IMG/VR virus record: IMGVR_UViG_3300047496_000382
DNA length: 64,000 nucleotides
Reading direction: 5' to 3' (one strand)
Source: a virus
Below, piece by piece: positions 37,499-57,931 of the stretch. The notes below the pieces were generated by a model that had not been told where the DNA came from, made no database searches, and saw only the letters and a list, made by a program, of their open reading frames with translations. The position numbers and the translations under genes were made by a program. Numbering within the stretch: position 1 is the stretch's first letter; each line of letters starts with the position of its first letter.

Positions 37499-37854
37499 CT
37501 GAACTTGTGCGGGTCGAGCACGAGGCCAAAACCCTCCGCACGCATCCACCAGCTCTTCACCTCTTCCGTGTAGGCCGCCTTCAGGCGCGGGTATGTCGCG
37601 TTGAAGTATCGCTCCGCCACGCGCGAGAGCGCATTCGGAAATAGCTCTTCCCAGTAGCGTGCCCGCGTCGACATCTCGGGCGTCAAGAAGAAGTGGTAGA
37701 CGATGGCGCCATCGACCATCGCGAACTCCGCCTTGAAGGTAGTGTGCGTGTCATCAACAATGAAGCGAACGGGCTGAAGATTGAAGTCAGTCTTCTGCTC
37801 GGCGGTTACCCGCATGTCCACTGCCGACGGGCTCAAGAACGCTGTCTCCGTCAT
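37438..37854 (-). CDS. hypothetical protein
   Basis: Likely start MTETAFLSP. Confidence 0.6.
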   Translation of the reverse strand: MTETAFLSPSAVDMRVTAEQKTDFNLQPVRFIVDDTHTTFKAEFAMVDGAIVYHFFLTPEMSTRARYWEELFPNALSRVAERYFNATYPRLKAAYTEEVKSWWMRAEGFGLVLDPHKFSYRFFELLDTELEEVLKTTA

Positions 37855-38764
37855 GGGTTGGGTCTCTCTGGGGCAAGACGTCGACCGTGTGGTGACCACC
37901 GGAGAGCTCGTGAATGCTCTTGATGGGAGTCGCGTCGGTTCGCAGCGCGATGGTCTGGAGCTCCTTCTGGAGATGCTCCGTTGGCTTCACGACCATCTCT
38001 ATCATCTCGGTGCAGGCACGAGCACCGTTGACGTAGTTCACGAACTTCTCGTTATCGCCCGGCCCGTCCATCTTGACCGCCGTGTTGGCGTTGAGGATGG
38101 CCATGTCGCGTGTCTCTTCCAGCAGACGCGTGAGCTCGAGCTTGTTGGGGGAGTGCCCCATCTTGATTTGGGCAGCAAGCGCCGACAAAGCTGAGTGTGG
38201 CAGCTCTGCGGCAATACGACGAGGGTCTTTGTAGTAAGTAGACTTCAACAGCGAGGCCGTGCCGTCGAATTCCTTACGCTCTGCCGCCCACTTCACGCGC
38301 ATCTGAAGAAGCAGGCGCAGTTGCGTTGAGTCGAGCAGGCTCATGTTCCAGAAGTAGTACGCATACTTCTCGATGACGCCGACCGTGCAGGACATGTGTC
38401 CGGCACGTGTCACGTACGCCGCGATGGCGGCGTGAGGCGCGTAAGTGATGAGCATCGTGTCGACGAACTCGCGCGCGCGCGGAAGCTCGAGGAGCTCGCG
38501 CGCTCCCTCCATCTCTGGCGTCGAACTGAACCAGCTGTTGAGCCCTTCGTGCAGGAGGAAGAAGCGCGAGGCCGAGTGGTTTCTGTCGAATGGATAGAAC
38601 TGCGCCGGCGGCTTGAGCTTCGCCTTCAGCCCCTGCACGTAGGCATCGCTGATGTAGTCGAGCCCCAACTCGAAGCACTCCTCCTTGAGCTGCTCGAGCG
38701 TCGGGGACTCTGGGTGAACGAGCCGCGCCCGGAGCGCGTTCTCTGCCGGACTGCGCAGGCGCAT
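37787..38764 (-). CDS. hypothetical helical protein (terminase small subunit candidate by position)
   Basis: Helical composition; upstream of terL; function by position only. Confidence 0.5.
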   Translation of the reverse strand: MRLRSPAENALRARLVHPESPTLEQLKEECFELGLDYISDAYVQGLKAKLKPPAQFYPFDRNHSASRFFLLHEGLNSWFSSTPEMEGARELLELPRAREFVDTMLITYAPHAAIAAYVTRAGHMSCTVGVIEKYAYYFWNMSLLDSTQLRLLLQMRVKWAAERKEFDGTASLLKSTYYKDPRRIAAELPHSALSALAAQIKMGHSPNKLELTRLLEETRDMAILNANTAVKMDGPGDNEKFVNYVNGARACTEMIEMVVKPTEHLQKELQTIALRTDATPIKSIHELSGGHHTVDVLPQRDPTHDGDSVLEPVGSGHAGNRRAED

Positions 38765-38765
38765 G

Positions 38766-40760
38766 TCAGCTCTGCTGGAAGGCGAGGACCTTCAAGCCCT
38801 CGACGGTCTGCTCCACAGAGCGGATGGCCTTCTCGAGCGCCGACGTCGGAATCTCCCGAAGTCCCAGGCGCGCGGCGAGCAAGAGCTCGCACATCTTTGA
38901 CTGCGCCTCATCAATGACCGGCAAGTAGCTGATGAAGACGCCGAGGTTCTCGGGGTTGATGAAGCCCAGGCTGAGTACGGTGTCGACGGCGACCGGGTCC
39001 GGGATGACAGCCGCCTCCTTCACGAGGTTCTGGCGGAAGTTCGGGACCGTCGCGAGGAACGCGGCAGCAGACGTCTTCATCTCGTCCCCGAGCTCCGCAG
39101 CAGTCTTCAGCTCGCGCGCGACGCGCACCTCGACTGGGCGGCTCCAGGCGGCAGCCTCGCCGACCTTCTTCAGCGCGTAGTCGGAGTTGACACCGAGACC
39201 GGCCAGCAAGAACAACGTGTCATCGAGCGACAAGAACTGGCGCTCGTCACTGCCGAGCTTTTCCACTGGGTAGCCACTGACGGCGAACGAGTTCTCACCG
39301 CCGTAGCGCAAGAAGACCTTCGGTGTCGCGTGCCCCTGCTTCTGGAAAGCGGCCGGGTCGCCGACGAGCTCAACGTCGGCAGCGTTCCCGAGCGGCATCC
39401 ACGAGAACGTGTCGGGGATGAGCACAGCGCCGTCTTCGCCTTGCGCGATGGTCGCGAGGTTCGGCTGCACCTTCACGAGCACCTGACGCCCGTCGTAGGT
39501 CTCTCCAACCAGCGAGACCCCTTCGCCTCCCGGCATCTGGAGCGTCGTCTTGATGGTCATCGGGATGGTGGCTTGCGCTTTCCCGTTGAGCACTTGGTAG
39601 AAGACGCCTTCACCGCGTGGATGGCTGGTGAAAAGGCTCGCGCCCTCCGACACCAAGAGGCCTGCGATTTCACCCTGCACGGCTTTCTGGCTGCCGTTGG
39701 TGAAGAGGAAGATGGGCAGTGACGTCCCGTCGAGGTCAAGCAGGTTCGGGAAGACGTACCCGATGAGCTCTTTCCCCTCGTGGTCTTGCACACGATAGAT
39801 GCCGAAGTCTGTGATGAGCTCCGGCTGCTCCTCCACCTCTTCCGGTGCGGGCGCTTCGCCCGTGGCGAGCGTCGTTGAGCCGTGGACATCTGCTGCAAGG
39901 ACGACCTTCGCGCCCAGCTTGTGCATCGCCTCTGCGCGCGAGAGGTGCTTCACCTCGGGAGCCCAGAAGTGGTGCGTCGCGACCTTGAGCGTGTACCCCT
40001 CGGAGGCGCGTACCAGCTGCATCACTGAAGGGATAACCGCGCTGACCAGGGCGCTGCCGAGCTTCGAAACGGGCCGAGGCACGTACTCCGCGAGCTTCGC
40101 GAGCGCGCTCGACGTTGCATGGCCGTTGCTGACGTACATTGCCTGCAGGCCACGGTCGCCATCGAGCTGCGACAAGAACGAGGCGTGGTCCGACGCGTTG
40201 ATGGTTGGCATGATGGCCGAGAGCACCGAACCCTCCTTGCCCATGCCGACACTCATCGTCGCGCCACCGCCACCGAAGCCGTAGTTCTGCCGGTACGGCG
40301 GATAGAGCTGCCCAATCATCGACTGGTCACCAGGACCGCGGCCCGTGATGTCGAAGACCTGCGGGCGGAAGATGGCCTGACGAAGACGCGTCTCCGTGAG
40401 CGGGAGCATCTTCGAGTCGTCGGTGACGAGAATGTCGAGCGGCTGGAGCTTTCGGTCTTTGACGACGATGGGGATGCGTGCGTGCTGGATGCCGGCGGCA
40501 GCGAGCGCATCCGGCGGGGCACCGTGCTGAATCTCGGTCTTGTTCGAGACTTCGATGTGGCCGAACGCGAAGCCGCGCTCACCATCCACACGGTCCATGA
40601 CGACGTCGGGCTCGAAGTCCGCGATGTACGGAATCTGCTTGAAGAGCTCTTGCATGATTTCGTTGGGCCACGCGTTGGGGTCCTCCGGCAGGACGACCTC
40701 CGCAGCGACCTTTTCGAAGTTCACGGAGGGCTCGAAGAAGAGACCGTCATTCGTCGTCAT
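38766..40760 (-). CDS. large putative virion/head protein with KxA motifs
   Basis: EKVAA, AKLAE, LKVAT, LKTAA, VKEAA; GGAG ribosome-binding site. Confidence 0.6.
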   Translation of the reverse strand: MTTNDGLFFEPSVNFEKVAAEVVLPEDPNAWPNEIMQELFKQIPYIADFEPDVVMDRVDGERGFAFGHIEVSNKTEIQHGAPPDALAAAGIQHARIPIVVKDRKLQPLDILVTDDSKMLPLTETRLRQAIFRPQVFDITGRGPGDQSMIGQLYPPYRQNYGFGGGGATMSVGMGKEGSVLSAIMPTINASDHASFLSQLDGDRGLQAMYVSNGHATSSALAKLAEYVPRPVSKLGSALVSAVIPSVMQLVRASEGYTLKVATHHFWAPEVKHLSRAEAMHKLGAKVVLAADVHGSTTLATGEAPAPEEVEEQPELITDFGIYRVQDHEGKELIGYVFPNLLDLDGTSLPIFLFTNGSQKAVQGEIAGLLVSEGASLFTSHPRGEGVFYQVLNGKAQATIPMTIKTTLQMPGGEGVSLVGETYDGRQVLVKVQPNLATIAQGEDGAVLIPDTFSWMPLGNAADVELVGDPAAFQKQGHATPKVFLRYGGENSFAVSGYPVEKLGSDERQFLSLDDTLFLLAGLGVNSDYALKKVGEAAAWSRPVEVRVARELKTAAELGDEMKTSAAAFLATVPNFRQNLVKEAAVIPDPVAVDTVLSLGFINPENLGVFISYLPVIDEAQSKMCELLLAARLGLREIPTSALEKAIRSVEQTVEGLKVLAFQQS

Positions 40761-40775
40761 GTGTTTCTCCAGCTC

Positions 40776-41420
40776 CTAGACGGTCTTCATGATACTCGCG
40801 AGCGCCGCAGCAGCGGAAGGACTGCTCGTGAGAAGCAACACACCATACACCGTGTCTCCGGGGTGGATACCGCCCACGCCCGCCGAGCACAACGCGTTGA
40901 TTTGGCTGCCTGCGGACGCAAGCGTGTCCACTCCCGTATAGCCGATGGTGATGAGAACCGTACCCCCAACGCCTAGATTTCCAGAGAGGCCCCCGAAGAA
41001 CGACACAGCCTCGAGCTTCTTCGCGAGGGCCTGGTCGAGAAGGTTCTTCAGCGTAGCGAGCTTCGAGGCCAACAGTCCTGCGAGCGCGTTGGCTCCTCCA
41101 ATCTTGGCCGACAGGGAAGCAGAGACCGGCGGAAGACCGAAAGCCAGTGTCGAGGCGATGCCTGCCTGCACCCGCGCGATGCTCAAGAGCTGCTGCTTGA
41201 GCGCAGTGATGGGATTCGTCAGATTGAGACCAAGGGACACGCTCGCCTGCTTCGCCGCAGCGAGCTGGTTGGCGAGGTCCTGCACCAGTGACCCAAGACC
41301 CGTAGGCCCTGTTAGCATCTGGTCGACCAGTCCCACGAGAGGAGAAGCCACAGCCACGGACCCATTGGCCGCAACATGAATAGTTCCCAGAGGGAAGGAG
41401 CCTAGAACGGTGACGCTCAC
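40776..41420 (-). CDS. putative baseplate-associated protein
   Basis: Coupled to the spike gene; hydrophobic/helical. Confidence 0.45.
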   Translation of the reverse strand: MSVTVLGSFPLGTIHVAANGSVAVASPLVGLVDQMLTGPTGLGSLVQDLANQLAAAKQASVSLGLNLTNPITALKQQLLSIARVQAGIASTLAFGLPPVSASLSAKIGGANALAGLLASKLATLKNLLDQALAKKLEAVSFFGGLSGNLGVGGTVLITIGYTGVDTLASAGSQINALCSAGVGGIHPGDTVYGVLLLTSSPSAAAALASIMKTV

Positions 41421-42646
41421 CCAAGCACCTCTTCATTCCCCGTCTCGATGGACCCTACCAACGATGCCACTGTTGTCAGTGTGCAGGGCAGTGGCACGCC
41501 CGAGACTGGCGTACTGCTGAACTGAATGATGATGGGCGCAGAGATGAGGTCCATCGCAATGAGGTCTCCCTTCCGTGCGACGGGCAGTTGGCCGGCACCG
41601 AGACGGATGATTTGTCCCTTGATGTTGACGAAGGTATTGCCGTCGATGTCGAGACCGTTCTGCGCAGTCAGCTGTCCTGCACCCGCTGCTTCGATAGAGA
41701 AGTCGGAGCCGAGCTTGAGGGTCAACGCACCAGTCACCTTACCGACGAAGTTGCCCTCGCAACGTAGGAAGGTATTGCCCGAGCGGTCGAAGATGAAGCG
41801 GAAGACCGAATTCTTCGGCGTCGCAGAGGAAGCGGCATCTCCGCTCTCTGCGATGAAGCCTTGCGGTGAGACTGCTACTTCGAAAATGATGGGGTTGTCG
41901 TCCCCGCCTGTGATGCCTGCCTGCGACTGTAGGGCGCCACCATCGGGTTCTGCCATCGGGTTGAAAATGCGCCCCTGCGCAATGCGAACATCGGCGTATT
42001 TGTCATTCGCGAAGACACGGAAGGTCTCGAGGTGCTGCGCTGGGTACTTCGTGAGAGAAGGGCCGTCCTGCAACCCCCAGGTCTCCGCGCCGCCGGCGTT
42101 GTAGTGCGAATAGTTCTCGCTGATGTCGATGACCTGGTTGCGCAACGGGATGTAGATACGCTGTGCGAGTTCCGTTGCTCCCAGAGATAGGACGCCGCCG
42201 CGGTGGAGGATGACGAAGTTCCCGTCGCGCGTCCGAAACCAGATGTCGCCTGGATTGATGGGTGGCCTGCCTCCCGCGAAGGTCGCGTCGGTGGGCGTCT
42301 TCGGCGGCGTGCCGTGCGTCGTAGTTCCCAGGGGCGCGTCAGCAGAGGAGTCCGAGACTTTCTCGAACGCCATCAGAAACGCGAGCACGAACGGCGCGGA
42401 GCTATCGGAGGGGATGCAAACCATCACCGTCGCACCGACCTCCGGCATCACGTAGATGCCCTCACCGTTAGAGTGGTGGAGGTACGGCGAGCCCACCTGG
42501 ATGTTGAAGTACTTCTTGCGGTCGTACTGCGCGATGACGTCCACGGTCCACTTCACCGTATTCGTGTTCACCACGCTACCCTGCACGATGTGGGCGGCCG
42601 TCAAGCCCTCCCTGTGCGTGAACGATGTTCGGAAGCGGGGAGGCAT
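41417..42646 (-). CDS. baseplate spike/hub protein (gp5/gpV-like OB fold)
   Basis: GEGIYVMPEVGATVMV OB-fold motif; beta-repeat region; C-terminal ARKGD...GSIETGNEEV tip-like motif. Confidence 0.7.
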   Translation of the reverse strand: MPPRFRTSFTHREGLTAAHIVQGSVVNTNTVKWTVDVIAQYDRKKYFNIQVGSPYLHHSNGEGIYVMPEVGATVMVCIPSDSSAPFVLAFLMAFEKVSDSSADAPLGTTTHGTPPKTPTDATFAGGRPPINPGDIWFRTRDGNFVILHRGGVLSLGATELAQRIYIPLRNQVIDISENYSHYNAGGAETWGLQDGPSLTKYPAQHLETFRVFANDKYADVRIAQGRIFNPMAEPDGGALQSQAGITGGDDNPIIFEVAVSPQGFIAESGDAASSATPKNSVFRFIFDRSGNTFLRCEGNFVGKVTGALTLKLGSDFSIEAAGAGQLTAQNGLDIDGNTFVNIKGQIIRLGAGQLPVARKGDLIAMDLISAPIIIQFSSTPVSGVPLPCTLTTVASLVGSIETGNEEVLG

Positions 42647-42647
42647 C

Positions 42648-43226
42648 TCAGTGAATCTTCCGATAGGCCGCGACCCGGCAACACCAGTCGATGAAGACGT
42701 CTTGCGCCATCGCATGCTTCATGAAGTTCACTGCGGGGTGCACCCACTGGACATTGCCCGGGATGTAACCCTTCTCGCTGTCAATGCGGTCAAGAGAAGC
42801 TACTGTTTCTCCCTCTGCGAGCGTCTTCTTCGTCATGCCGAGTGGTGCTCCGGTTAGAGCGCATCGGCGTCCTTGTTGTTCAAAAATAGACCACAGTGTC
42901 GCGGCCGTTACTGAGAATACAAATCCTCGGTGACGCGCCTGCGTACGAAGACACCCGTAACGATGCCCACTCAGGTGGCCCGCCGACGCGTACTTCGACC
43001 GGTACGTCCGTGTCTGCATTCGCGCGCAACCGCAAGACTGCGGTCCCTGTTCTACGCGTCTTGGCCTACGCCCTATAGTTGATGCGCGCTTGACTAGCTC
43101 CTTGCCGCACACGCAACGCACACGCCACATAACGTCACCGCGCGCGGCAACTTCACCCGTGGGGGCTAGCACCGTCAACAAGCCGATGACTTTTCCGGCC
43201 AAGTCCTTTCGGATGTTCGGCATCAA
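42648..43226 (-). CDS. free-standing HNH (homing-type) endonuclease
   Basis: WRVRCVCG, QSCGC, RCALTG, SLDRIDSEKGYIPGNVQWVHPAVNFMK. Confidence 0.85.
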   Translation of the reverse strand: MMPNIRKDLAGKVIGLLTVLAPTGEVAARGDVMWRVRCVCGKELVKRASTIGRRPRRVEQGPQSCGCARMQTRTYRSKYASAGHLSGHRYGCLRTQARHRGFVFSVTAATLWSIFEQQGRRCALTGAPLGMTKKTLAEGETVASLDRIDSEKGYIPGNVQWVHPAVNFMKHAMAQDVFIDWCCRVAAYRKIH

Positions 43227-46200
43227 TAGAAGTGCTCCGGCACATCCTTGAGGTGCCCGTAACCGGGTTTGCTGGCGTCCCTCTTCGTCAGACCTAGCTC
43301 GCTGCCGAAAGCCATGCCCGGGACAGGGTGCGTCCCGTGGATGTGCGACACGCCGCGCGTTGCCGCCGCCTCCATCAACGTCTCGCGAAGATGCCGGTGC
43401 TGCAACTTCGCCATCCAGTCTTCTTGCATCTCGAGAGGTAGAACTTCAATGCCTTTCAGCGTCGGCTTGTGTTCGATGGGCTTTTTGCTGGCTGCTATGA
43501 GCTCGGCGTTGAGCTTGTAGACCGTCGTCGTCGGGCGATACTCCCCACGAAGAACAGTCGGGTGGTCTCCAGAGTCCGTGACCTCGGTGAGATTCCCCAT
43601 CACGCGCACGATGGTCTCGATGGCGCGGCGCTTGATGCCCTCCTTCGCGTAGAGACCGTGAATCTCGTCGACGAGGTGTCCCTGCACACGCTCCATCGAA
43701 TTCGTCGCCTTGAAGAGCTGGCGCGGGTTCACGACGGTGCGGTTCGGGTCGGAGAGATGCTGACCTGCCTCGACCTGCATGCCGACGACGGGCGGCTGCC
43801 AGGGCATGTAGCCGCTGATGCCCCGCGAGTTGGGCAGCGCCGCGTGCAACGGCATCCCGCGCGCGTCGTTGCTGACGTGGTGACGCTTGCCGCCGACAAA
43901 GATGTCCACACCTGTCGCGGTCGGTTGAATCTTCTCGACCTTGCCGCTGACCATCGACAGCGTCGCCTCGTTCGGTACGTGCTCCGGCAGCATCAGCAAG
44001 TTCGAGAAGTGCTTGAAGGCGTTGACGACCTTCGAGCCGCTCGCCTCACGCACGCCACCCGTGTGGAAGGCCTTCAAGGTCAGCTGCACTGCGCGCTCAC
44101 CAACCGTGTGCGCCGAGAGAACGCCGATGTTGGTCCCGAGCGGATGCAGGTCTCCCGAAGAAGAAACTCCACTGCACTTCTGGCAGATGCCCTGCTCCTC
44201 CTCACACTTCAGCGGCGAACGAACGACGAGCCTGGCGTCCTTCTTGACCGACCGAATCTTACCCACGATGTCCGGTGTGAGCAGCGTGCCCGCCGGTACG
44301 TGCAGACCATCCTGGTCGAAGTCCTTCTGCAGGTAGCGGTCGTGAATGTCCCGCTCCTGCACCGACAGAGCAACGCCCTTATTGGTGCCACAATCGTGCT
44401 TAGTGATGAGCACGTTCATCATGTTCTGCATCAACAGCTTCGACATAACGCCGGGTTTCTCGACACCCTGGACCTTGAGGACTGCGCCCCGCCGCGCACC
44501 GTGCATCTGCGTCCAATAGCTGCCGAGGTCCAGACCCTCAGAGTAGCTCTTGGTGACCGGTGTCGGGATGTCCTGGTCAGCGGAGTCCTGGTAAATCATC
44601 GGGGCCAAGACCATCTGCTTGTACTGCTCCCAGCCCGGCTTCACGCCCGCGCTGTACATCGTGAAGAGATTCGAAGGGTCCTTCTTCATCTTCTCTTCGT
44701 GCAGCGTCTTCATCGTGTTGCCGGCTGTCTTGTAGACGTTGATGGCCTGGCGGTCCTTGTCAGCCTGCGGAATCTTTGTGCTCGCGTAGATGCTCGCGGC
44801 TTCGGCGTGCGCCGCCTTCAAGACCTTGTCGCGCGTCTCATAGTCTGGGGTGAAATCCTTGAGCGACAGCGTGTGCACCCCCGTGGGGACGAAGATGTTC
44901 TTGCTCGGGTCGTGCACGGCAACGTGCGTGTTTTCGAACTTCTGGAACGCGAAGGCATGGCCAGCGGCTGTGGGCAGCGGCAGGCGTACCGAGCCAGAGG
45001 CCGCGCCGTTGCCGATGTCCTTTAGCTTGTTCACGACGTCGCCGTAGAGCTCGTGATGGTTCTTCGCGAGCGTCGTCAGCATCGCGTCAAGCCCCTTGCC
45101 GTCGACCTTCGTGTTGAAGTCATGGAGATAGGTGTCCTGCATCTCCTTCGGCAGCGCAGCCGCGAGCATCACGCGCCCCGGCGTGGTTTTCTTCCCATCC
45201 AGCTCGACGACATCAGTCGACAGCAGATGACCCTTCTGGACGGCCTCGACAACCTGCGCCGGGTTCTTGAAGGTCTTCCCCGTCTCCTTGCCGACGAGCC
45301 CGAGCTTGTAGAGGCCGAGTGCCGACTCGAGCGTCGGCTGGTACATCACGCGCCCCGTCGCCTCGCTGAAGAGGTTGTTCGATGGGAACATCTTGTGGGC
45401 CTCCGCAACGGCCTCACGCGTGATGGGGACATAGGCGCTCATCGAGTCACCGTCGAAGTCGGCGGTGAATCCCCCAGTCACGAGCGGGTGAATCTGCACC
45501 GCGCTACCTTCGACACGACGCGCACGGAAGCCTTGCACCGAGTACTTGTGAAGCGCAGGGTCGCGCTTGAGTAGCACGGGGCGCTCCTCCATCACCCGGT
45601 CGAGCGCACGCCAGACCGAGGGCGTCGGCTTGGCAAGCAGCGCTGGTGCCTGCAGCTCCGTCTGGATGGCGCCCATCTCGCGCAGCTTCCGAATGACAAA
45701 GGGTCGATAGAGGCTGAGCGCTGCGTGACTCGGGAGTCCGACTTCATCGAGACCGAGCGCGGGCTCCGGCACGATGGTCGAGCGCATCGTCAAGTCCTGT
45801 CGCCGGTTGATGAGCACGCGCTGGAAGTAGCCACGCTTCGGCTGGCTTCCGCTGATTTGGTGCAGGATGCCCTTGAGTTTCTGCCCCTCGTACGGGATGC
45901 CGACGCCCATCAGCGCCTTCACGCCGTCGTAGAGACTCTCGCGAAGCTCTTGCTTGTGCGCGTCGTCAAGGTTCTGCGCGATGACCGGGTCCTTCAGCTT
46001 ATCGTTCACCTTCGCGAAGTCCGAGTAGAGCTTCGTGAGTCCCTCGAACTGAAGGTTGCCGTCGGGCAGCCGCGAGACCGCACGCAGCACGGGCGGCATC
46101 ACCGGCAGATTGTGCAGCACGTATGCGTCCGCCGGCTTGAGGTTCGCAGTGTCGAGCGCACGCAAGTACTTCACACGCTTCAAGACACTGTCGACCTTGT

Positions 46201-49200
46201 GCTCACCACGCACCGTTCGCAGTTCTTCTTCGGCCTTCCGCAGGTCCTTCTTCACGTCGATGCGCTCAAGAAGCAGCTTGATGCCAGCACCGCCGGTGAT
46301 GCCTGCATGCGTGTCCGTGAGATGCCCGTTGGGCGTGATGCCGCGTGTTCCTGCGATGACGGCGTCGTAGTCCTTCTGCGAGAGCCCGGTGAGGTGTCGA
46401 ATCGGGGCTTCGAAGACAGGGTTGGGGAGCGGCTCGGCCAGCGAGATGCGCGTCCACTGTCGACCCCCGTGACCGCCCGTGAGCTTCTCGTCGAAGAGGC
46501 CACCCGTGATGGGCTTCGGGTCGCCGTTCCCGTCGACCTTGTTGCGATGCACCAGCTCTGCAGGCTTCGGCAGCTCCTTCGGCGCGAGCGTTCGAATCTG
46601 GTCATCCGTCAACGGCGTGAGGATGAAGTCATGTCCCTTCTTCTCGAGGTTCACACCTGCACCACGCAGGAGGTCTTCGAATTTCTGGAACGCGAAGGTC
46701 GGCTTCGGCGTAGGCAGCGCGCCACCAGTCGCAATGGCTGCCCAAATGCGTCGATGGTCACTGGGCCACTGCTTCGAGGGGCTCGTGTTCGGGTCCGGCC
46801 CTTCAGACTTGTACGACTGCATCTCACGGATGTTCGCCTTCGCGCCGTGCGCGAGGAGCGCGTAGAGCCCGAGGGTTCCCATCGCCTGACCGCCGGTGTG
46901 CCCACCGCTCGCCGGTTGCAGGTTCGAGTCGTAGGTCTCGTGCTCTCCTGACCCAGGAAGCGGGTCCATGCCGCTGCGCACTGAGAGCTTCTTGTCGACC
47001 TGGTGCACGAGCTTGAGCATGTGCATCGGACCCACAAGCGCGTGTCCGAGACTTTGCTTGGTGACCGGGTCGATGAGCTCCTCGGTGTCGGAGAGCCCGT
47101 GCGTCTTCAAGTCACTCTTCACCCGCGCGAGGAAGTCGACGCCCGGCTCAAAGTTCTCGACGAGGTAGGTCTTGCCCGTCTTCTTGGCGACCTTGCCGGC
47201 GGCCGTCTCGAGCACCTGGCTCACGTTCATGCGCCCAGGAACGCCGCTGGGGTTCAGGGCCACTTCGATGTGCTCGCCGTTGGGCGTGTGCGGCATCTCT
47301 GCGTCAGGGAGGATGCGCGTGACGATGCCCTTGTTGCCGGCGCGTCCGGTGAGCTTGTCGCCGACCTGCATCGGCTCCGTGGTCTTCACGTGCACTGAAA
47401 CACCGTCCGGCCCACGGTGCACACTCACTACCTCGCCCGAGGCGTCCGCGTCCCAGCGCAAACTCTTGTCGGTGTGCGCACCGCTCATGCTGCGCCGAAT
47501 CGCGCTGAGGCCAGTACGGTCCTTCAGACGGAACGGCTTCATGGCCGCAACAAGCGGGTCGCCGGGACTGACTCGGCTACCGACGCGCACGATGCCGTCG
47601 TCGTCGAGCTTTGCGAGCTGGTCCTTCTTGAAGACGTTGTGATGCTCGCGCATGAACGCGGCTTTGTTGAGCTTCGTCTCCCCGTCGACCGCGAGCGTGT
47701 GCTTGTGGAGGTGCTCGCTCGAGAGCTTATCCGCCGCAGACTGGCTGATGACGATGCCGTCCTCGAAGTTGTAGCCACGAAAGGGGATGAACGCGACGCG
47801 GAGGTTCGTACCGAGAGCGAGTGTGCCGTTCTTCGAGAAGTTCGTGTCCGCGACCGACTTGCCCTCCTTCACTTCGTCCCCGACCTTCACCGTCGGCGTC
47901 GAGTGCAGCATCCCCTTGGCATCGTTCAACGGGTAGTGCTGGTAGAGCTGGACCTCGTGCTTCTGTCCGCTCTTGTCCGTGATGACGATGGCGTCCTTCT
48001 TCACCGACGTCACGTGCCCATCGACCGGCGCGACGTGCGACGCGAAGTCCCCGACGACCTGCTCGAAGGTGACCGGCCCCGGGACACCCGTAGAGACCTG
48101 CACCAGCGGCGGCTCACGATGCACCAACGAGATGGCCTGCTCCATCTGCCGGCTGGCCATCGAGGCACGACCGCCGCTGGTGTTCCCCATGAAGGGGATG
48201 AGGTTGGCCGTGATGTTGAAGAGCTGCGCCGGCAATCGCATCACGTAGTGCGCATCTTCGAACTTGCCGTTCTCGATGGCGTTGTTCTTCACGCTCATCT
48301 TCACGGTGTCGGAGATGGGCTTGGGCCGCCCGTTCTCCCAGCGCACCTGGTCGGGGAGCACGACGTTCGCATCTAGGAACGTGGCTGCGTTCACGTGCTC
48401 CATCTCGTGAGTGCGCGTGTTGTAGAGCTGGATGCGCGCCTCGTTGCCGACCTTCTTCAGACCGACGGGCAGGCGGAGCGTGACGCCTGTCTTCGCACCC
48501 TCGGGGGTGTTGATGGGGTCGAGGAAGCCGAGATGGCTCGGGTTCACGAACTTCGCCTCGTCGACGATGCCGCGCTCGCTACGGATGCCGCCCGGTCCCA
48601 TGATGGTCGTCTGCATTGCAGAGCCGAGCATCTCGAGAGGGTTGATTTGCGACGGCGTGGACGAGGCTTCGTTCTCCTTGAAGGTGTCGCGGACCGGGCG
48701 GTCGAAGAGGTCCATCTTGATGATGTCGCGCACCTCCTTCGCCGTGTTGATTTTCCTCTCAATGCGCTTGCGAATCCCAGGACCTGCACCGCGCAACTTG
48801 TCGTAGGCGAAGTCTCCGGCCGAGCGCAGGTCCTTGAAGACGAGGCTGTCACGGTCATCTTCTGGATGGCCGGCCTGGACCTTGAGCATCTTCTCCGTCG
48901 CGAGCCGAATGGCTTCCGACGTCACATGCGTGAGCGGCTTTCCGAGTGTAACGCTGGTGGAGTCAGGTCGGAGCTTTGAGCGCTCCATTGCCTGGTAGAA
49001 GTGAGCCGCTGCCTCCTCGTGCGACGACGGCGCCGTTCCTTTGCTAGTACGGTAGAACGCCTCGAGCGCGGCGCCGACATTGCGCGCGTTCTTGTTGGCA
49101 GTGAGGATTTCTTTCCCCCACGCCTTCTCGAGCTCTTCGTCCGTCGCGCCGAGCGTCTTCAGCAACGGGTACAACGGCGGGTGCGCCTTGTTGTAGTCCA

Positions 49201-49669
49201 TCGTGAAAATCTTCGTGTCCGGGTCGAAGGCGAGGTCGAACCGGCGCCCGTCCTTCACGTTGAACTGACTCTCGAGCTCACCGTTCTGCCTGCGGCGCGC
49301 GTACACGCCAGGCTTGAGCTGCCACTGGTTCGAGACCTGGTACTCCCGCCCATCGACCAAGTAGCTGTGGCGACGCGTGGTCTTCGGAATCTCCGCTACC
49401 CGGATGCGCTGACGGTCGATGAGTTGCCCGGCCTTGTCCTTCAGCGCGAATGTTGCGAAGACAGGTACGGCCCAACTCTCGCCGTTCACCTTCGCGGCGT
49501 GCTGCCCACGAATGTCATCTGGGTGCAGGTCATCCTGCACCTCGAGGTTCTCGAGGTGGAGCGATTGCAGCTTCCCTTGAATGCTCCCATTCGGGAAGTG
49601 ACTGCGAATGCCCTCGAGCACGTGGCTCTTGAGGTCGTCGAATGCGTCCGTCGGGGCGAGGTAGGCCAA
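43223..49669 (-). CDS. rpoBC: single-chain fused DNA-directed RNA polymerase beta-beta' (about 2148 aa, TTG start inferred)
   Basis: beta motifs PINTPEG, GYNFEDGI, GDKLTGRAGNKG, NPSGVPGRMN; beta' motifs LPVMPP, KRDPALH, TADFDGD, RSPLKC...CQKC, GERAVQLTLKAFHTGG; GGAG 6 nt before TTG. Confidence 0.95.
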   Translation of the reverse strand: MAYLAPTDAFDDLKSHVLEGIRSHFPNGSIQGKLQSLHLENLEVQDDLHPDDIRGQHAAKVNGESWAVPVFATFALKDKAGQLIDRQRIRVAEIPKTTRRHSYLVDGREYQVSNQWQLKPGVYARRRQNGELESQFNVKDGRRFDLAFDPDTKIFTMDYNKAHPPLYPLLKTLGATDEELEKAWGKEILTANKNARNVGAALEAFYRTSKGTAPSSHEEAAAHFYQAMERSKLRPDSTSVTLGKPLTHVTSEAIRLATEKMLKVQAGHPEDDRDSLVFKDLRSAGDFAYDKLRGAGPGIRKRIERKINTAKEVRDIIKMDLFDRPVRDTFKENEASSTPSQINPLEMLGSAMQTTIMGPGGIRSERGIVDEAKFVNPSHLGFLDPINTPEGAKTGVTLRLPVGLKKVGNEARIQLYNTRTHEMEHVNAATFLDANVVLPDQVRWENGRPKPISDTVKMSVKNNAIENGKFEDAHYVMRLPAQLFNITANLIPFMGNTSGGRASMASRQMEQAISLVHREPPLVQVSTGVPGPVTFEQVVGDFASHVAPVDGHVTSVKKDAIVITDKSGQKHEVQLYQHYPLNDAKGMLHSTPTVKVGDEVKEGKSVADTNFSKNGTLALGTNLRVAFIPFRGYNFEDGIVISQSAADKLSSEHLHKHTLAVDGETKLNKAAFMREHHNVFKKDQLAKLDDDGIVRVGSRVSPGDPLVAAMKPFRLKDRTGLSAIRRSMSGAHTDKSLRWDADASGEVVSVHRGPDGVSVHVKTTEPMQVGDKLTGRAGNKGIVTRILPDAEMPHTPNGEHIEVALNPSGVPGRMNVSQVLETAAGKVAKKTGKTYLVENFEPGVDFLARVKSDLKTHGLSDTEELIDPVTKQSLGHALVGPMHMLKLVHQVDKKLSVRSGMDPLPGSGEHETYDSNLQPASGGHTGGQAMGTLGLYALLAHGAKANIREMQSYKSEGPDPNTSPSKQWPSDHRRIWAAIATGGALPTPKPTFAFQKFEDLLRGAGVNLEKKGHDFILTPLTDDQIRTLAPKELPKPAELVHRNKVDGNGDPKPITGGLFDEKLTGGHGGRQWTRISLAEPLPNPVFEAPIRHLTGLSQKDYDAVIAGTRGITPNGHLTDTHAGITGGAGIKLLLERIDVKKDLRKAEEELRTVRGEHKVDSVLKRVKYLRALDTANLKPADAYVLHNLPVMPPVLRAVSRLPDGNLQFEGLTKLYSDFAKVNDKLKDPVIAQNLDDAHKQELRESLYDGVKALMGVGIPYEGQKLKGILHQISGSQPKRGYFQRVLINRRQDLTMRSTIVPEPALGLDEVGLPSHAALSLYRPFVIRKLREMGAIQTELQAPALLAKPTPSVWRALDRVMEERPVLLKRDPALHKYSVQGFRARRVEGSAVQIHPLVTGGFTADFDGDSMSAYVPITREAVAEAHKMFPSNNLFSEATGRVMYQPTLESALGLYKLGLVGKETGKTFKNPAQVVEAVQKGHLLSTDVVELDGKKTTPGRVMLAAALPKEMQDTYLHDFNTKVDGKGLDAMLTTLAKNHHELYGDVVNKLKDIGNGAASGSVRLPLPTAAGHAFAFQKFENTHVAVHDPSKNIFVPTGVHTLSLKDFTPDYETRDKVLKAAHAEAASIYASTKIPQADKDRQAINVYKTAGNTMKTLHEEKMKKDPSNLFTMYSAGVKPGWEQYKQMVLAPMIYQDSADQDIPTPVTKSYSEGLDLGSYWTQMHGARRGAVLKVQGVEKPGVMSKLLMQNMMNVLITKHDCGTNKGVALSVQERDIHDRYLQKDFDQDGLHVPAGTLLTPDIVGKIRSVKKDARLVVRSPLKCEEEQGICQKCSGVSSSGDLHPLGTNIGVLSAHTVGERAVQLTLKAFHTGGVREASGSKVVNAFKHFSNLLMLPEHVPNEATLSMVSGKVEKIQPTATGVDIFVGGKRHHVSNDARGMPLHAALPNSRGISGYMPWQPPVVGMQVEAGQHLSDPNRTVVNPRQLFKATNSMERVQGHLVDEIHGLYAKEGIKRRAIETIVRVMGNLTEVTDSGDHPTVLRGEYRPTTTVYKLNAELIAASKKPIEHKPTLKGIEVLPLEMQEDWMAKLQHRHLRETLMEAAATRGVSHIHGTHPVPGMAFGSELGLTKRDASKPGYGHLKDVPEHFY

Positions 49670-49742
49670 TGGTTTCTCCGCGGAACTTCTGGGCCGCAGG
49701 GTAGCTCGCACGCGAGAACACATGCAAGGCAGAACCAAGCGG

Positions 49743-49753
49743 TGGAATAAGAG
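49743..49753 (+). promoter_or_regulatory. candidate phage promoter TGGAATAAGAG
   Basis: Near-identical to 60276-60286; both end 35 nt before an ATG at a divergent junction. Confidence 0.5.
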
Positions 49754-50600: not shown

Positions 50601-51208
50601 CCGCGTCCGCTGGCCTACTAGAGAAGACGGGCTGGACATGCACAAGCTGCGACGAGCACATCGAGTACGTCGAAGAAGTCTTCCAGTTGCAGGTTGTGGA
50701 GATGCGCCTCATCGAAGGACACCTCCGCTACTTGCCCATCATGGCGACGAACGGGGACTACCTGTTCGACCCGCAATTCATCTGCTTTCGCTGCTGGGAA
50801 GACGCCTACGAAGACCTGAAGGAGCACGTCGATGACATGCCGTCCCTGGACGACATGGGAAGCATGTTCGCCTGCTCAACTTGCGGTAGCGGCATTCGCG
50901 AAGGGGAGTACACCATCATCGCGACGCTCGGAGAGATGCATCGCTCTCGCCGCGCACCACAAGGACACCACGACCCGACGTTCGTGCCTTCAGGAGCGCC
51001 GACAGTCCTCTGCCTCTACTGCGCGAAGTGTGTCGATGAGCAGTCCATCGATATGTGGATAGGACTGGGACACAACAACGACTGCCTCGAGTGCGCGCAC
51101 GTTCGCTGCTGGCGCAACGACGTGACGTGCGAGTGCCACTGCCACACAGACGACCCCTACGAAGAAGAAGACGTCGAAGACGACACTGAGGAGGACACCG
51201 ATGGCTGA
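50588..51208 (+). CDS. multi-CxxC zinc-binding protein with acidic tail
   Basis: CTSC, CFRC, CSTC, CLYC, CLEC, CECHC. Confidence 0.7.
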   Translation: MAYIAASAGLLEKTGWTCTSCDEHIEYVEEVFQLQVVEMRLIEGHLRYLPIMATNGDYLFDPQFICFRCWEDAYEDLKEHVDDMPSLDDMGSMFACSTCGSGIREGEYTIIATLGEMHRSRRAPQGHHDPTFVPSGAPTVLCLYCAKCVDEQSIDMWIGLGHNNDCLECAHVRCWRNDVTCECHCHTDDPYEEEDVEDDTEEDTDG

Positions 51209-52430
51209 GAAGACCGAGAAGAAAGTGGGCGATGACCAAATCGTGGTGCACAACCTGGAGGACATCCTCCAGATGGCGCTGCTGGTCCCGAAGGATGACC
51301 CGCGAGACCCAGAGTGCCGCTGGGGGGCACCCATCTGCCTCTGGGGCTCGCCAGGCATTGGCAAGTCGGGCCGTGTCGAGGTTGCCGGCACGCGACTCCA
51401 GTTGCCTGTGGAGACGGTCTACCTCGCTACGAGGCAGCCCGAGGACATCTCCGGCGCACCGTTCCAGGACGTCAAGAACGGCGGCATCACTATCGAGACG
51501 ATTCTCGGGGCCGTCCGCACACTCGTCGCCGCGAAGAAGGGCGTGCTGTTCCTCGACGAGCTGTCGTGCGCACGACCCGCCATCCAGGGCGCCGCGCTCG
51601 GTGTCGTCTACGAACGCAAGGTCGGCGACACCGTGCTGCCGCCGCGCGTGCGCGTAGTTGCCGCGGCCAACCCCCCGGAAGAAGCCGCCGGCGGCTGGAT
51701 GCTTTCTCCCCCGATGGCCAACCGCTTCATGCACTTCACGGTGCCTGTGCCTTCTCGCGCGGAGTGGAGCGAGTGGCTCATGGGGAACGACGCGAGAGAA
51801 GACGTCAACCTCGCAGCGAACGAAGCGATGGTTGCCCAGAACTGGGACGTGGTCTGGGCACGCGTGAAGGGCGCCGGCGCGGGCTTCATGCTGAAGAGCC
51901 CGGACGACACGCTCTACGCGCTGCCGCGCGAAGGCAGCAAGGACCGCACGCGCGCATGGCGCTCCCCGCGGTCGTGGGAGCTCGGACTGCGCGCAGTCGC
52001 CACGTGCCGAGCCCTGGGACGTCCGGAGCTCGAGCTCGAGCTGCTCACTGGCTGCGTGGGTCACGCAGGCGCTGAGATGTGGGCGACGTACAACAAGAAC
52101 CTCGACCTCCCGGACCCGAAGGAGATGCTCGAGAAAGGCTGGACGCCGGACAAGATGCGCCTCGACGTCTGCCACGCCGCGTACTCCTCGGCCATCAGCT
52201 ACGCGCTCGACCCAAAGGACAAGAAGGAGCAGCGCGCGCGTGCAATTCTCGCGTGGAAGCTTCTGCAGGGCGGCCTCAACGCGAACATCCCCGACATCAT
52301 CGCGCACCCGGCGAAGACGCTCATGAAAGCGGGCTACCGCGCGTCCGTCGATGCGGAGCTCAAGGCTGTGGCGGGTGAAATCACCCTTCGCTTCGGCCAC
52401 AACAAAATCGCGAACATGGTCTCGCGATGA
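51201..52430 (+). CDS. MoxR-type AAA+ ATPase
   Basis: WGSPGIGKS Walker A, LFLDELS Walker B, VAAANP sensor 1, ANRFMH arginine finger. Confidence 0.9.
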   Translation: MAEKTEKKVGDDQIVVHNLEDILQMALLVPKDDPRDPECRWGAPICLWGSPGIGKSGRVEVAGTRLQLPVETVYLATRQPEDISGAPFQDVKNGGITIETILGAVRTLVAAKKGVLFLDELSCARPAIQGAALGVVYERKVGDTVLPPRVRVVAAANPPEEAAGGWMLSPPMANRFMHFTVPVPSRAEWSEWLMGNDAREDVNLAANEAMVAQNWDVVWARVKGAGAGFMLKSPDDTLYALPREGSKDRTRAWRSPRSWELGLRAVATCRALGRPELELELLTGCVGHAGAEMWATYNKNLDLPDPKEMLEKGWTPDKMRLDVCHAAYSSAISYALDPKDKKEQRARAILAWKLLQGGLNANIPDIIAHPAKTLMKAGYRASVDAELKAVAGEITLRFGHNKIANMVSR

Positions 52431-53929
52431 GCAACCACGAAGAGCGCATCGCAGTCGCGCGCGCCTTCGCCATCTTGACAGCGCCCTACTACATCGCCGC
52501 GATTCACGGGTTCGTGTTCGTGGCGGTGCCCGGGTGTCGCACGATGTTCCTCACGCGGAATCTCATCTGCGGGTACGACCCTGAGTGGGCCGTGCGCGCA
52601 ACGGACGAGGAACTGGCCGCGGACATCATCCACGAGGTGAACCACTTCCTGCGTCGGCACTTCGAGCGGTCCGACACCGTGGCGTACCCAGACCTCTTCG
52701 CTCTCGCCGGCGACCTACCCATCAACTCGGACATGCGAACTGCGGGATGGACGCTCGAAGAAGGCTCCATCTACCCCGAGAGCTTCGACCTGCCCGCCGG
52801 GCTGAGCACAGAGGAGTACTACGAACTCCTGCTCAAGAAGAAGAATGAAGAGGAAGAAGAGGAGAAGAAAAAAGAGAAGGACGAACAGGAGGGCGGCGAC
52901 GAAGAGGGCGAAGGAAAAGGCGGTGCTCCCGGCGGACAGAACAACAAGACCGACGGCGACCAGAAAGGCGCCAGCGGGAAGAAGCCGCAACCGGACCCGA
53001 ATGCCAAGAACGCTGGAGCGGGCAGCGGCAAGCCAGGCAAGGGGCAAAGCACACCCAGCAAAGGCGGTGGCGCGGGTGGCAAGGGCACACCGGTAGATAA
53101 GAAGTGCGCCGCAGGCAACTGCGGGTCCATCGCCGGTCCCTCCCACCCGCTCGAGCAAGCGACGTTGGAGCAGCTCGCTGCAAGTGTTGGCCGCAACGAG
53201 GTCGAACAGAGGGTCATCGAGAAGCAGGTCTCGCAAGCCATCAAGACACACGCAGCGACGAACGGTCGGGGGTCCGTGCCCGCCGACCTTCTCTCCAAAG
53301 CCGAGATGGACGACGAGCCCTCGACCATTCCCTGGCAACAGGAGCTGGCATCGGTGCTGCGCAACACCTCTGGACGCATCCAGTCCGGTGGTGACGACTA
53401 CTCCATCTCGCGGCCATCAAAGCGTTCTGGACTGCGCCGCGGTCTCATCAGACCTGGCCTGGTCGAGCACCTTCCCGAGGTCGGCATCGTCATCGACACC
53501 TCGGGCTCGATGGGTCCGCAGCAGCTCACTGCGGCCGCGCGCGAGGCCTACGCCGTTTGCCAGGCGCTCGGCATCGACGAGGTCTGGTTCTGCGAAGCAG
53601 ACGCCGCCATCTCACAAGACTGGAAGCGCGTCGGTCCTTCCTTCTTCCGCGACCTCGAGATTCGTGGCGGAGGCGGTACTGACTTCGCGCCCGCCATCGC
53701 CAGCGTGGACCGGTTGAACCCCCGACCGGACCTCCTCGTGTACTGCACCGACGGCGACGGCCACGCTCCTAAGCAGCCGCCACCAAATCTCGAAGTCGTA
53801 TGGGCAGTAGTTCCTTCGTACTTCAACCGCGCTCCCGCTCAATGGGGTCACACGGTCATCATCTCCGATGACCTGGGTCGTCGTCGACGCGAGCTCATCC
53901 TCCCAGACGATACAAAGGACACGCCATGA
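52427..53929 (+). CDS. DUF2201-type metallopeptidase-like plus VWA domain protein
   Basis: HEVNH (HExxH); IDTSGSM MIDAS, GGGGTDF, YCTDGDG; charged/Gly linker. Confidence 0.88.
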   Translation: MSNHEERIAVARAFAILTAPYYIAAIHGFVFVAVPGCRTMFLTRNLICGYDPEWAVRATDEELAADIIHEVNHFLRRHFERSDTVAYPDLFALAGDLPINSDMRTAGWTLEEGSIYPESFDLPAGLSTEEYYELLLKKKNEEEEEEKKKEKDEQEGGDEEGEGKGGAPGGQNNKTDGDQKGASGKKPQPDPNAKNAGAGSGKPGKGQSTPSKGGGAGGKGTPVDKKCAAGNCGSIAGPSHPLEQATLEQLAASVGRNEVEQRVIEKQVSQAIKTHAATNGRGSVPADLLSKAEMDDEPSTIPWQQELASVLRNTSGRIQSGGDDYSISRPSKRSGLRRGLIRPGLVEHLPEVGIVIDTSGSMGPQQLTAAAREAYAVCQALGIDEVWFCEADAAISQDWKRVGPSFFRDLEIRGGGGTDFAPAIASVDRLNPRPDLLVYCTDGDGHAPKQPPPNLEVVWAVVPSYFNRAPAQWGHTVIISDDLGRRRRELILPDDTKDTP

Positions 53930-56357: not shown

Positions 56358-57931
56358 CAGATGAACTCCGGTGCTCGACCGGCCGCCGCCGGAGTTGTGA
56401 TTCGCTCAGTAGGGGTCGTCTGCCCCTGCTCGGGAGGGTCTCGCTCCGGAGGTCCCGGAGAGAAGATGGGAGGAGCCTGCCGCTTCACTCCACGCAGACG
56501 GTCGATGCCTCGACCCAGAAGAGCACCCGCTTCACTCGTGGCCTTGCCGGCGATGAGATTGCCTGCAAGCGGCATCATTCCGCCAGCGATATTTCCAACC
56601 ACCGAGCCGATGTGTCTTCCGACCGCAGCCCCGCGTCCCTCCCCGCGGTCATCGTACTCTTCACCAGAGACCGCGCGCCGAGCAGCCAGCGCAGCCGGAA
56701 GACCCACCATCGCCAACGACACAGAGCGCGGCTGTCCGTAACGCTGTTCGTCCCAGCTGGTGCGCAGTGTTCCTGCAGGGTCCTCGCGCAACGCCTTCAA
56801 ATAGCCGGGGATGCTGGTGAGACGCTTGTCTTCGGCTTTCTCCGCCGCCTGCAGACGCTGCTGCACGTCCCCAAGGTGCGCGGTCGCGCGTGCCGCTTGC
56901 CCACGATTCAAGCCAACGACCGCTTTCTCTGCCTTGTCGCGCGCGCGGTGCATCGCCTGTCGCGCATTCCAAGACCCACCGCGCACGCCACGCAGCTCCT
57001 CCGGCGTGAGCATCCCCGTGAGCGAGTGAACTTGCCGCTGCCCGAAGCGCGCGCCGGCGGCGAGAGCTCCCTCGTTCTTGCCGAACTGTGTGAGGTCGAT
57101 GCCGGTGCGCGCACCGAATGCACCGCCCAGCCCCGCGCCGAGGAGGCCACCCGTTGCCGCTCCGCGCATGCCCGCCGACAGGCCACTACCGAGCGCGCCA
57201 AGACCATCACTGCCTTCACTCTTCGCTTGCTGGTACGCCGTACGTCCCGTAGCGACACCACCAAGCCCTGCTCCGAGAAGACTGCCCATCCCGAGGCCAG
57301 CTCCCGTGTTGCGGAGCCGCTGCGCCATCGCGCCAGACCAGCCGGCCTGCTTCGCGTGCGACCACGAGGGGGCGAGACTGTTGAGCCGACTCTTCAGCTC
57401 CTCGCTCTCCTCCGAGAGCACCCGCTGCGCGGTAGACGCGTGCCCCTGCAGACGGCCCTTCACGTAGTAGTAGAGGCCGGGGATGCCCTCCTCGTTCACA
57501 TGAGGGATTCCCTGGACCAACGCCTTCGTCTTCTGACCAAGGCCCTTCGCCTTCGCTGCGAGCATCGTCGACGCCGCGTGCTGGTCCTCATGCATCGTCC
57601 ATCCCTCGGGGTGCGAGTGGATGTGGTAGTTCATGTCTGGGTGCCGGAAGGACTGGAAGCGGTCCTGGCCCGCCTCTGGAATCGCGATGGTCACCGGCCG
57701 GAAGCCGAGACTGTGCACGTCCGTCTCAGTGAGCTTGTCCTTCGGGATGACGATGCGCTTGTGGCCCGTACCTGCGTAGACGCCCTGTTCCTTGAGCAGA
57801 TTCGTGAGCTCGCCGAAGCGCCCATGGAGCTGCGCCATCTGCTCCGGCGCGTAGGGCGTCATCTCCCCGGCAGCGAGCTTGCGGAGCTCGTCGCGGAAGG
57901 CGCCCATCACGTCTTCGTTGAGGTCAGGCAT
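56357..57931 (-). CDS. putative internal virion protein with Gly zippers
   Basis: AFRDELRKLAA, AKQAG; long GxxxG segments. Confidence 0.6.
   Translation of the reverse strand: MPDLNEDVMGAFRDELRKLAAGEMTPYAPEQMAQLHGRFGELTNLLKEQGVYAGTGHKRIVIPKDKLTETDVHSLGFRPVTIAIPEAGQDRFQSFRHPDMNYHIHSHPEGWTMHEDQHAASTMLAAKAKGLGQKTKALVQGIPHVNEEGIPGLYYYVKGRLQGHASTAQRVLSEESEELKSRLNSLAPSWSHAKQAGWSGAMAQRLRNTGAGLGMGSLLGAGLGGVATGRTAYQQAKSEGSDGLGALGSGLSAGMRGAATGGLLGAGLGGAFGARTGIDLTQFGKNEGALAAGARFGQRQVHSLTGMLTPEELRGVRGGSWNARQAMHRARDKAEKAVVGLNRGQAARATAHLGDVQQRLQAAEKAEDKRLTSIPGYLKALREDPAGTLRTSWDEQRYGQPRSVSLAMVGLPAALAARRAVSGEEYDDRGEGRGAAVGRHIGSVVGNIAGGMMPLAGNLIAGKATSEAGALLGRGIDRLRGVKRQAPPIFSPGPPERDPPEQGQTTPTERITTPAAAGRAPEFI

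Follow-up and report, generated by a model that had tools for sequence, protein, structure and literature searches.

A gene for a bacterial-type RNA polymerase (RNAP) that lies among the genes for a virus particle raises the question of what such an enzyme is, which partners it uses and when during infection it acts. The gene in question belongs to the viral record IMGVR_UViG_3300047496_000382, a 177,425-bp entry of IMG/VR that is 95% complete and labelled as a provirus. The stretch analysed here, referred to as the window, is the first 64 kb (64,000 nucleotides) of that record. From the letters of the window, the original prediction had proposed a compact, single-chain fusion of the RNAP subunits beta and beta' embedded in the morphogenesis region, minimised in size and perhaps freed by the fusion from alpha-dependent assembly. 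A phage-encoded beta-beta' fusion in this region is supported as real and conserved, while the ideas of minimisation and autonomy fare less well. The reading favoured below is that the enzyme is a component of the virion.

On the minus strand, the frame is uninterrupted from 49804 down to 43223, confirming that the proposed gene is one open reading frame (ORF) of about 2148 amino acids (aa; Table 1). The TTG at 49669 is a sensible start, as it is properly spaced from a GGAG sequence and yields an N-terminus, (M)AYLAPTDAF, that fits the MAYLDPxEAF conserved in homologues, i.e., MAYL(D/A)P. That bacterial-type beta motifs are followed by beta' motifs is borne out by Pfam, with the beta domains Rpb2_3 (PF04565, E 2e-6) and Rpb2_6 (PF00562, E 1e-62) at aa 341-899, and the beta' domains Rpb1_1, Rpb1_2 and Rpb1_5 at aa 1135-2036 (PF00623, E 1e-24; PF04998, E 3e-15). 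Likewise, bacterial beta chains in the PDB align to aa 18-957 (E 1e-78; chain 8syi_C over residues 34-1014) and bacterial beta' chains to aa 1126-2104 (E 1e-86); the beta part was also aligned to cyanobacterial and Thermus beta. In models built with AlphaFold2, the beta' half (mean confidence score, pLDDT, 74.8) matches bacterial beta' in Foldseek with a TM score of 0.70 and E 2e-58, and the beta half (pLDDT 66.5) matches bacterial beta along its length with E 4e-52. Identity to bacterial beta and beta' is about 22-30%, and 22-24% in structural alignments. Domain matches and modelled folds concur in showing the predicted product, whose gene set is present in one copy in the genome, to be the complete catalytic core of a bacterial-type DNA-dependent RNA polymerase on one chain.

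The junction between the two modules was placed by the original prediction near 46640-46655, and local alignments to both E. coli subunits agree: aa 956-1015 align to the C-terminus of beta and aa 1006-1135 to the N-terminus of beta'. At about aa 1005-1012, the C-terminal helix of beta (..FAFQKFEDLLRGAGVNLE) passes straight into the beta' N-terminus (KKGHDFILTPLTDDQIR..). A word-indexed search found, among the matches listed, at least 120 full-length homologues of 2119-2171 aa and 55-67% identity, some of them on contigs that reach about 200 kb. When an 801-aa piece across the junction was used for an exhaustive search of targets clustered at 50% identity, the best 150 cluster representatives were all long proteins (37-73% identity), and most of them span the junction within one alignment stretch. 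In addition, the gene is one uninterrupted frame in 34 of 34 related IMG/VR loci, and a stop at the junction, the observation that would speak against a fusion, was found neither in these loci nor in the cluster representatives. Since the single frames come from independent assemblies, the junction can for practical purposes be taken as free of stop codons and assembly errors. Judged from these alignments, the fusion is genuine and goes back to the ancestor of the lineage.

To list the parts retained and lost, structure prediction was complemented by a profile built from 105 homologues and aligned to the RpoB and RpoC of E. coli, and conservation was scored residue by residue across 31 homologue sequences. 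The beta part is colinear with E. coli beta 82-1307 except for 235-360, 953-1049 and 1129-1185, which we take to be the lineage-specific insertions SI1, SI2 and i11. For beta', the alignment covers E. coli RpoC 141-551, 638-946 and 1188-1347; of E. coli 947-1187, where SI3 and the jaw lie, about 72 residues are left, so that SI3 and most of the jaw are gone, and the N-terminal 140 residues of E. coli beta' correspond to about 73 here. Within this last segment, the beta' zinc ribbon, whose E. coli ligands are C70, C72, C85 and C88, has been removed by a clean 39-residue deletion. The whole 2148-aa protein contains only four cysteines, none of them before residue 1760, and all belong to the second beta' zinc site, where C1760, C1822 and C1829 are invariant among homologues and C1832 is at least 90% conserved.

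The catalytic elements, on the other hand, are retained, with both double-psi barrels, the bridge helix and the trigger loop (FHTGG) all present, and so are the clamp helices and the flap-tip helix. In the Mg-binding motif, most homologues read NADFDGD; the three aspartates (D404, D406 and D408, A1 numbering), A403 and G407 are invariant across the 31 sequences, and the residue before A403, a T here, is N in at least 90%. The two docking surfaces for a sigma factor are likewise recognisable. The clamp helices, which dock sigma region 2 (..LPVMPPVLRAV.. and the subsequent helices), align to E. coli 240-310, and the flap-tip helix, which docks sigma region 4 (..RTGLSAIRRSMSG..), aligns to the E. 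coli segment ..TPEEKLLRAIFGEKA.., which we take to be the flap tip. At the main rifampicin-contact positions the residues are replaced (equivalents of D516S, H526S, R529Q and S531T), and the pocket so substituted suggests that the enzyme is insensitive to rifampicin. At the other end of the protein, a conserved C-terminal tail, ..PG..HLK.VP.HHY (43226-43330, minus strand), extends beyond the alignment to bacterial beta', with its last Tyr invariant; a role as a signal for packaging or in assembly is conceivable for it.

The reduction in size is only modest. E. coli beta and beta' indeed total about 2750 aa (1342 + 1407 = 2749), and the fused protein is 601 aa shorter; however, most of the missing residues are E. 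coli lineage-specific insertions, and compared with B. subtilis (1193 + 1199 aa) the difference is about 240 aa, or about 10%. Thus, the term minimised is justified for the loss of the beta' zinc ribbon and of most of the jaw, but not for the bulk of the length difference.

Which partners does this core have? No alpha, omega or sigma gene had been recognised in the window. For alpha and omega the absence extends to the whole 177-kb record, in which the alpha N-terminal, alpha C-terminal and omega domains (PF01000, PF01193, PF03118 and PF01192) have no match at E<=1; the control searches were positive in 13-14 of 14 reference genomes. For sigma it is confined to the window, as a sigma-70-family gene lies beyond it, at genome position 156060-156848. 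Its product matches Pfam Sigma70_r3 above the curated cut-off (E 8e-10, 39.1 bits), aligns to SigA over regions 2-3 (E 8e-7; the Pfam match to region 2 is weak, E 0.02) and ends in a conserved stretch that, in the homologue alignment, looks like a helix-turn-helix and resembles region 4. Of five related phage records that are near-complete and contain the fused RNAP, four have a sigma homologue. Also outside the window, at 79197-80663, the genome encodes an SNF2 translocase/helicase (Pfam SNF2-rel_dom and Helicase_C). Because a sigma gene is present and both sigma-docking elements are kept, the enzyme is not factor-free. As for alpha, three conserved neighbours of the RNAP gene (37787-38764, 38766-40760 and 40747-41436) have no match in PHROGs or Pfam, and 38766-40760 has no usable match in the Atlas; from their sequences, none looks like a substitute for alpha.

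That the fusion makes alpha dispensable is a proposal without direct support, and not a compelling one. Known cellular fused enzymes retain alpha, that of Helicobacter among them, and so does an artificially tethered E. coli beta-beta'. Conversely, phiKZ-type enzymes dispense with alpha despite being split (PMC7598289).

Two promoter-like elements lie back to back upstream of the RNAP gene. In 16 of 24 distinct related loci, the 120 nucleotides (nt) that precede the RNAP gene contain the element facing the gene, in the general form TTG-N20-22-TA[CG]NCT, compared with a background of 0.007 per 120 nt. Genome-wide there is no enrichment (0-2 sites per spacing vs 3-4 expected), and the element is therefore claimed as conserved at this locus only. 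The divergent element, which has its central block in common with the first, keeps its place in 13 of 24 relatives and represents a class, CAA-N19-A[TC]AAGA, with 21 copies in the genome against 1.3 expected and 2-5 for four neighbouring spacings. The class can be written as GCAAyT, a 17-nt spacer and ATAAGA, and its copies are mostly intergenic, facing a ribosome-binding site (RBS) and a start codon. In the window, copies of GCAAyT-N17-A[TC]AAGA stand at about 10323 (minus), 30098 (minus), 49725 (plus) and 60258 (plus); most are found 5' of small genes in the 133-177 kb region, often after a terminator hairpin ending TTTCTAGCC. The bare hexamer TAG[AT]CT is not enriched (25 in the genome vs 39 expected). 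Both elements show the two-block geometry of the sigma-70 type and are putative promoters of either the host or the phage enzyme.

The most informative relative for the function of the enzyme is Salmonella phage Arash (OQ632216). In the proteome of purified Arash virions, Gp206, which comprises beta and the N-terminal part of beta', gave the most spectra, and the virions also contain Gp216 (the C-terminal part of beta'), the sigma factor Gp10 and the helicase Gp217 (PMC10585845). All four have homologues in the phage of the window by BLASTP (Gp206, E 0; Gp216, E 9e-36; Gp10, E 2e-23; Gp217, E 4e-97). Moreover, in 31 of 35 loci the genes follow the order portal, an optional cassette of AAA_5 and DUF2201 genes, RNAP, spike-like gene, a 664-aa gene and terminase, with the portal upstream of the RNAP gene (4.6 kb away in this genome) and the spike candidate directly downstream. 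The place of the RNAP gene among virion genes is better explained if the enzyme is itself a virion component. Based on gene position, conserved synteny and the Arash virion proteome, the interpretation favoured here is that of a virion-delivered RNAP-sigma holoenzyme, perhaps accompanied by the SNF2 protein, that would start phage transcription independently of the host; we put its probability at roughly 60%. According to this model, the enzyme would be made alongside the particle proteins, packed into the head and ejected together with the DNA into the host. The phage sigma would dock on the clamp helices and the flap tip, and the enzyme would then begin to transcribe from two-block promoters specific to the phage, with no need of the host polymerase. 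The covalent link would guarantee a 1:1 stoichiometry of beta and beta', and a single chain may ease the assembly and packaging of one large cargo.

A terminal peptide, AFxDELxK[IL][AGS], is shared by six otherwise unrelated proteins of the phage, including the SNF2 helicase that is the homologue of Arash Gp217. The N-terminus of the RNAP, ..DAFDDLKSHV.., was considered as a version of this tag (AFxDELxKIA) and rejected, as it fails the motif and aligns to the native N-terminal helix of beta.

Several observations weigh against virion delivery. Packaging has been demonstrated for Arash only, and its transfer to the phage of the window rests on homology and gene order, at about 31% identity and with a beta' that is split in Arash. 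Neither the RNAP nor the sigma protein carries the terminal tag borne by the six other phage proteins. The presence of relatives in a myxobacterial chromosome, together with the provirus label, points to a temperate life, which fits host-independent early transcription less obviously. Either promoter class may be read by the phage or by the host enzyme, and since TTGC-N20-TACCCT resembles an ordinary sigma-70 promoter, the host polymerase could transcribe the RNAP gene. Finally, the lack of an alpha gene does not entail independence of alpha, as host alpha could be recruited.

The last point leads to a second reading, a hybrid enzyme whose fused catalytic core needs the host alpha dimer, and perhaps omega, for assembly or for the response to activators. 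It is compatible with either a packaged or an unpackaged enzyme, and the fusion would then confer no autonomy. The phage has neither an alpha nor an omega gene, yet its beta and beta' are near full length and bacterial in architecture, and the continued use of alpha by the fused Helicobacter and tethered E. coli enzymes mentioned above points the same way. Conversely, if the enzyme is assembled late and goes into the head, host alpha would have to go with it, and the 22-24% identity in structural alignments makes conserved alpha interfaces unlikely across the many host phyla of the lineage. Enzymes of the phiKZ/AR9 type, in addition, function without alpha or omega (PMC7598289). The hybrid is on balance less likely than not. 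The most far-reaching reading, in which the single chain and the phage sigma, perhaps with SNF2, would form a self-sufficient, alpha- and omega-free holoenzyme packed in the capsid and injected, has in our estimate somewhat less than an even chance.

The main rival to virion delivery, though an unlikely one, is an enzyme that never enters the virion. The host polymerase would transcribe the gene early, and newly made RNAP with the phage sigma would take over middle and late transcription, much like T7 RNAP or the non-virion enzyme of phiKZ. There is a single RNAP gene set in the genome, the gene is the first of its operon and lies shortly 3' of the conserved sigma-70-like TTGC-N20-TAC(G/C)CT, and the product is without the tag seen on the six other proteins, all of which would suit this scheme. 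It is opposed by Arash, where the homologue is the most abundant virion protein and the sigma and SNF2 partners are in the virions too, and by the placement of the gene, co-oriented with and between portal, spike and terminase throughout the lineage, as is typical for virion components. An artefact or a dead gene (a chimera of rpoB and rpoC in assembly, a stop hidden by sequencing error, or a decaying gene captured from a host) has a negligible chance, as nothing favouring it was found and it is contradicted by the single frame in all independent assemblies, the catalytic residues invariant across 31 diverse homologues, a GC content at third codon positions (GC3) of 0.83 like that of the genome's other genes, and an identity of only about 22-30% to any bacterial beta or beta'.

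The wider neighbourhood of the gene is collected in Table 1. The cassette encoding a MoxR-like ATPase and a metallopeptidase/VWA protein is divergent from the RNAP gene; it is present in 24 of 35 relatives and absent from more distant ones, where its absence leaves portal and RNAP adjacent, as they also are in Arash and in Vibrio phage D69. The HNH/endonuclease VII-like ORF, which overlaps the RNAP stop codon by 4 nt, occupies this position in one of 35 loci, and is for that reason probably a free-standing homing endonuclease, a mobile insertion rather than part of the enzyme.

Table 1. Features of the RNAP locus and of its surroundings (positions in the record; empty cells, nothing given)
Feature	Position	Strand	Evidence or remark
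Tail sheath	16501-19587		
Major head protein	26989-28116		
Large terminase	35331-37145	-	PHROG 675, E 3e-47; Pfam GpA_ATPase
gp5/VgrG-like tail spike candidate	41417-42715	-	Atlas Phage_base_V and Gp5_OB clusters, 0.94-0.96; weak Pfam Phage_base_V
HNH/endonuclease VII-like ORF	42648-43226	-	PHROG endonuclease families, E 3e-20
Fused RNA polymerase beta-beta', single ORF, 2148 aa + stop	43223-49669	-	Open frame, Pfam, PDB matches
Beta' module, aa 1011-2148	43226-46639	-	Profile alignment to E. coli RpoC, Foldseek
Second beta' zinc site, Cys 1760/1822/1829/1832 = E. coli C814/C888/C895/C898	44174-44392	-	Alignment
Mg-binding motif TADFDGD	45446-45466	-	Translation, aligned to E. coli NADFDGD
Deletion site of the N-terminal zinc-binding domain of beta', GGLFDEKLTGGHGGRQW	46454-46504	-	Gap vs E. 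coli beta' 63-101
Beta/beta' junction, linker absent	46630-46660	-	Local alignments to E. coli termini
Beta module, aa 1-1010	46640-49669	-	Profile alignment to E. coli RpoB 82-1307, Foldseek
RBS and start, GGAG 6 nt upstream of TTG at 49669	49667-49679	-	Sequence, conserved N-terminus
Element facing the RNAP gene, TTGC-N20-TACCCT	49698-49727	-	Promoter-like, conserved in relatives
Divergent element, GCAAGG-N17-ATAAGA	49725-49752	+	Promoter-like; central block common with RNAP-facing element
AAA_5 (MoxR-like) ATPase and DUF2201 metallopeptidase/VWA cassette	51201-53929	+	
Portal	54279-56357	-	BLASTP to Arash portal Gp204, E 7e-83
Genes bearing AFxDELxK[IL][AGS]	56356-57966, 78793-79200, 79197-80663, 85953-86432, 160484-160885, 162754-163260		

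A relative of the locus is found in a bacterial chromosome. The 13.6-Mb chromosome of the myxobacterium Pendulispora rubella (CP089983, at about 9.115 and 9.20 Mb) carries a fused RNAP of 59% identity with the same neighbours, and a terminase of 66% identity lies about 85 kb from it on the opposite strand. Host-like genes (a sigma-54 activator, DUF418) start 6 kb beyond the RNAP gene. The arrangement is suggestive of a prophage, resident or rearranged, and of a host range in the Myxococcota for this subgroup. In the 177-kb record itself, labelled as it is a provirus, no tyrosine integrase was found; serine recombinases were not searched for.

The family to which the enzyme belongs is large: clustering at 50% identity gives at least 150 groups, and the contigs, roughly 165-210 kb long, come from many environments. 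The gene of the window is free of inteins, whereas 85 of the collected homologues reach 2350-4739 aa through in-frame insertions of about 280-520 aa, up to five per protein, and Pfam LAGLIDADG_3 is detected in 12 of the 120 homologues listed. The insertions fall at sites that correspond to residues of about 392, 774, 1410-1420 and 1870 in the window protein, in the most conserved motifs: the fork/TPEG region and the GNKG barrel of beta, and the DFDGD loop and the trigger loop of beta'. Being such a hot spot for inteins, the RNAP gene is a good marker for the lineage. A literature search returned the Arash paper, the mReC paper discussed below and reviews of phiKZ-type enzymes, and no description of a single-chain bacterial-type phage RNAP was found among them. 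The phage probably brings its own transcription enzyme into the host, as its large and barely studied lineage appears to do. If the single chain and its sigma do form a self-sufficient, packaged holoenzyme without alpha or omega, no natural cellular-type RNAP that still uses two-block promoters and a sigma-70-family factor would be smaller. It would also be an independent, fourth type of virion RNAP besides those of N4, phiKZ and crAss-like phages. A core encoded by one gene, together with its cognate sigma, would offer a tractable minimal model for the roles of alpha, omega and the beta' zinc ribbon, and would add a phage strategy for escaping host transcription and probably also the drugs and defences aimed at it. 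As cultured relatives exist, these predictions can be tested at the bench.

Among known systems, the RpoB-RpoC fusions of Helicobacter and Wolbachia join beta and beta' end to end in the same order, which reflects the closeness of the termini. They are full-size cellular enzymes that operate with alpha and omega and with the sigma factors of the host, whereas the enzyme described here is viral, about 25% identical to bacterial subunits, devoid of the beta' zinc ribbon and encoded in a genome without alpha or omega. Another known group is the mReC clade (Weinheimer and Aylward 2020, PMC7481178), metagenomic Caudovirales contigs, partly from IMG/VR, whose deep-branching beta and beta' are recognisable by cellular COG models but fall outside the cellular enzymes in the tree. 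That work treats beta and beta' as two subunits and mentions neither a fusion nor sigma nor packaging in the virion; six IMG sample identifiers of contigs related to the window were absent from its supplementary files.

The crAss-like gp66 is likewise a single, very large chain; it measures about 2100-2200 aa, contains two double-psi barrels and is carried in the virion, but has no similarity to beta or beta' detectable by hidden Markov models (PMC7481178), while the protein of the window matches Pfam models down to 1e-62. Enzymes of the phiKZ/AR9 type are also encoded by phages, are related to beta and beta' and lack alpha and omega; they occur alongside an SNF2-type helicase, and one of their two RNAP sets is packed in virions (PMC7598289, PMC7824862). 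They consist, however, of four to five polypeptides, are far more divergent, exist as two paralogous sets and have no sigma homologue; a review states that jumbo phages encoding an RNAP lack sigma factors. In contrast, the enzyme of the window consists of one chain, is present in one copy and has a partner of the sigma-70 family.

The nearest characterised relatives are Arash and the Vibrio phages D69, D148 and D181, which belong to the same lineage (31-32% identity over about 1580 aa; 32% over 1583 aa for Gp206) and share homologous portal, terminase, sigma and SNF2 genes with the phage of the window. In the three Vibrio phages (at 10551-11190 in D69), two tiny ORFs or an annotated homing endonuclease precede the gene for the C-terminal part of beta', and the split of beta' there may stem from the insertion of a mobile element or may be an unrecognised intron. 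The homing endonuclease suggests that, in Arash-like phages, a divided beta' is the derived state. In Arash, this gene is 4.7 kb away. In all of these phages the beta/beta' junction is fused too and the RNAP gene stands beside the portal, but beta' is cut after about residue 1490 (in the numbering of the window protein) into a separate gene, whereas in the phage of the window the whole of beta and beta' is one chain.

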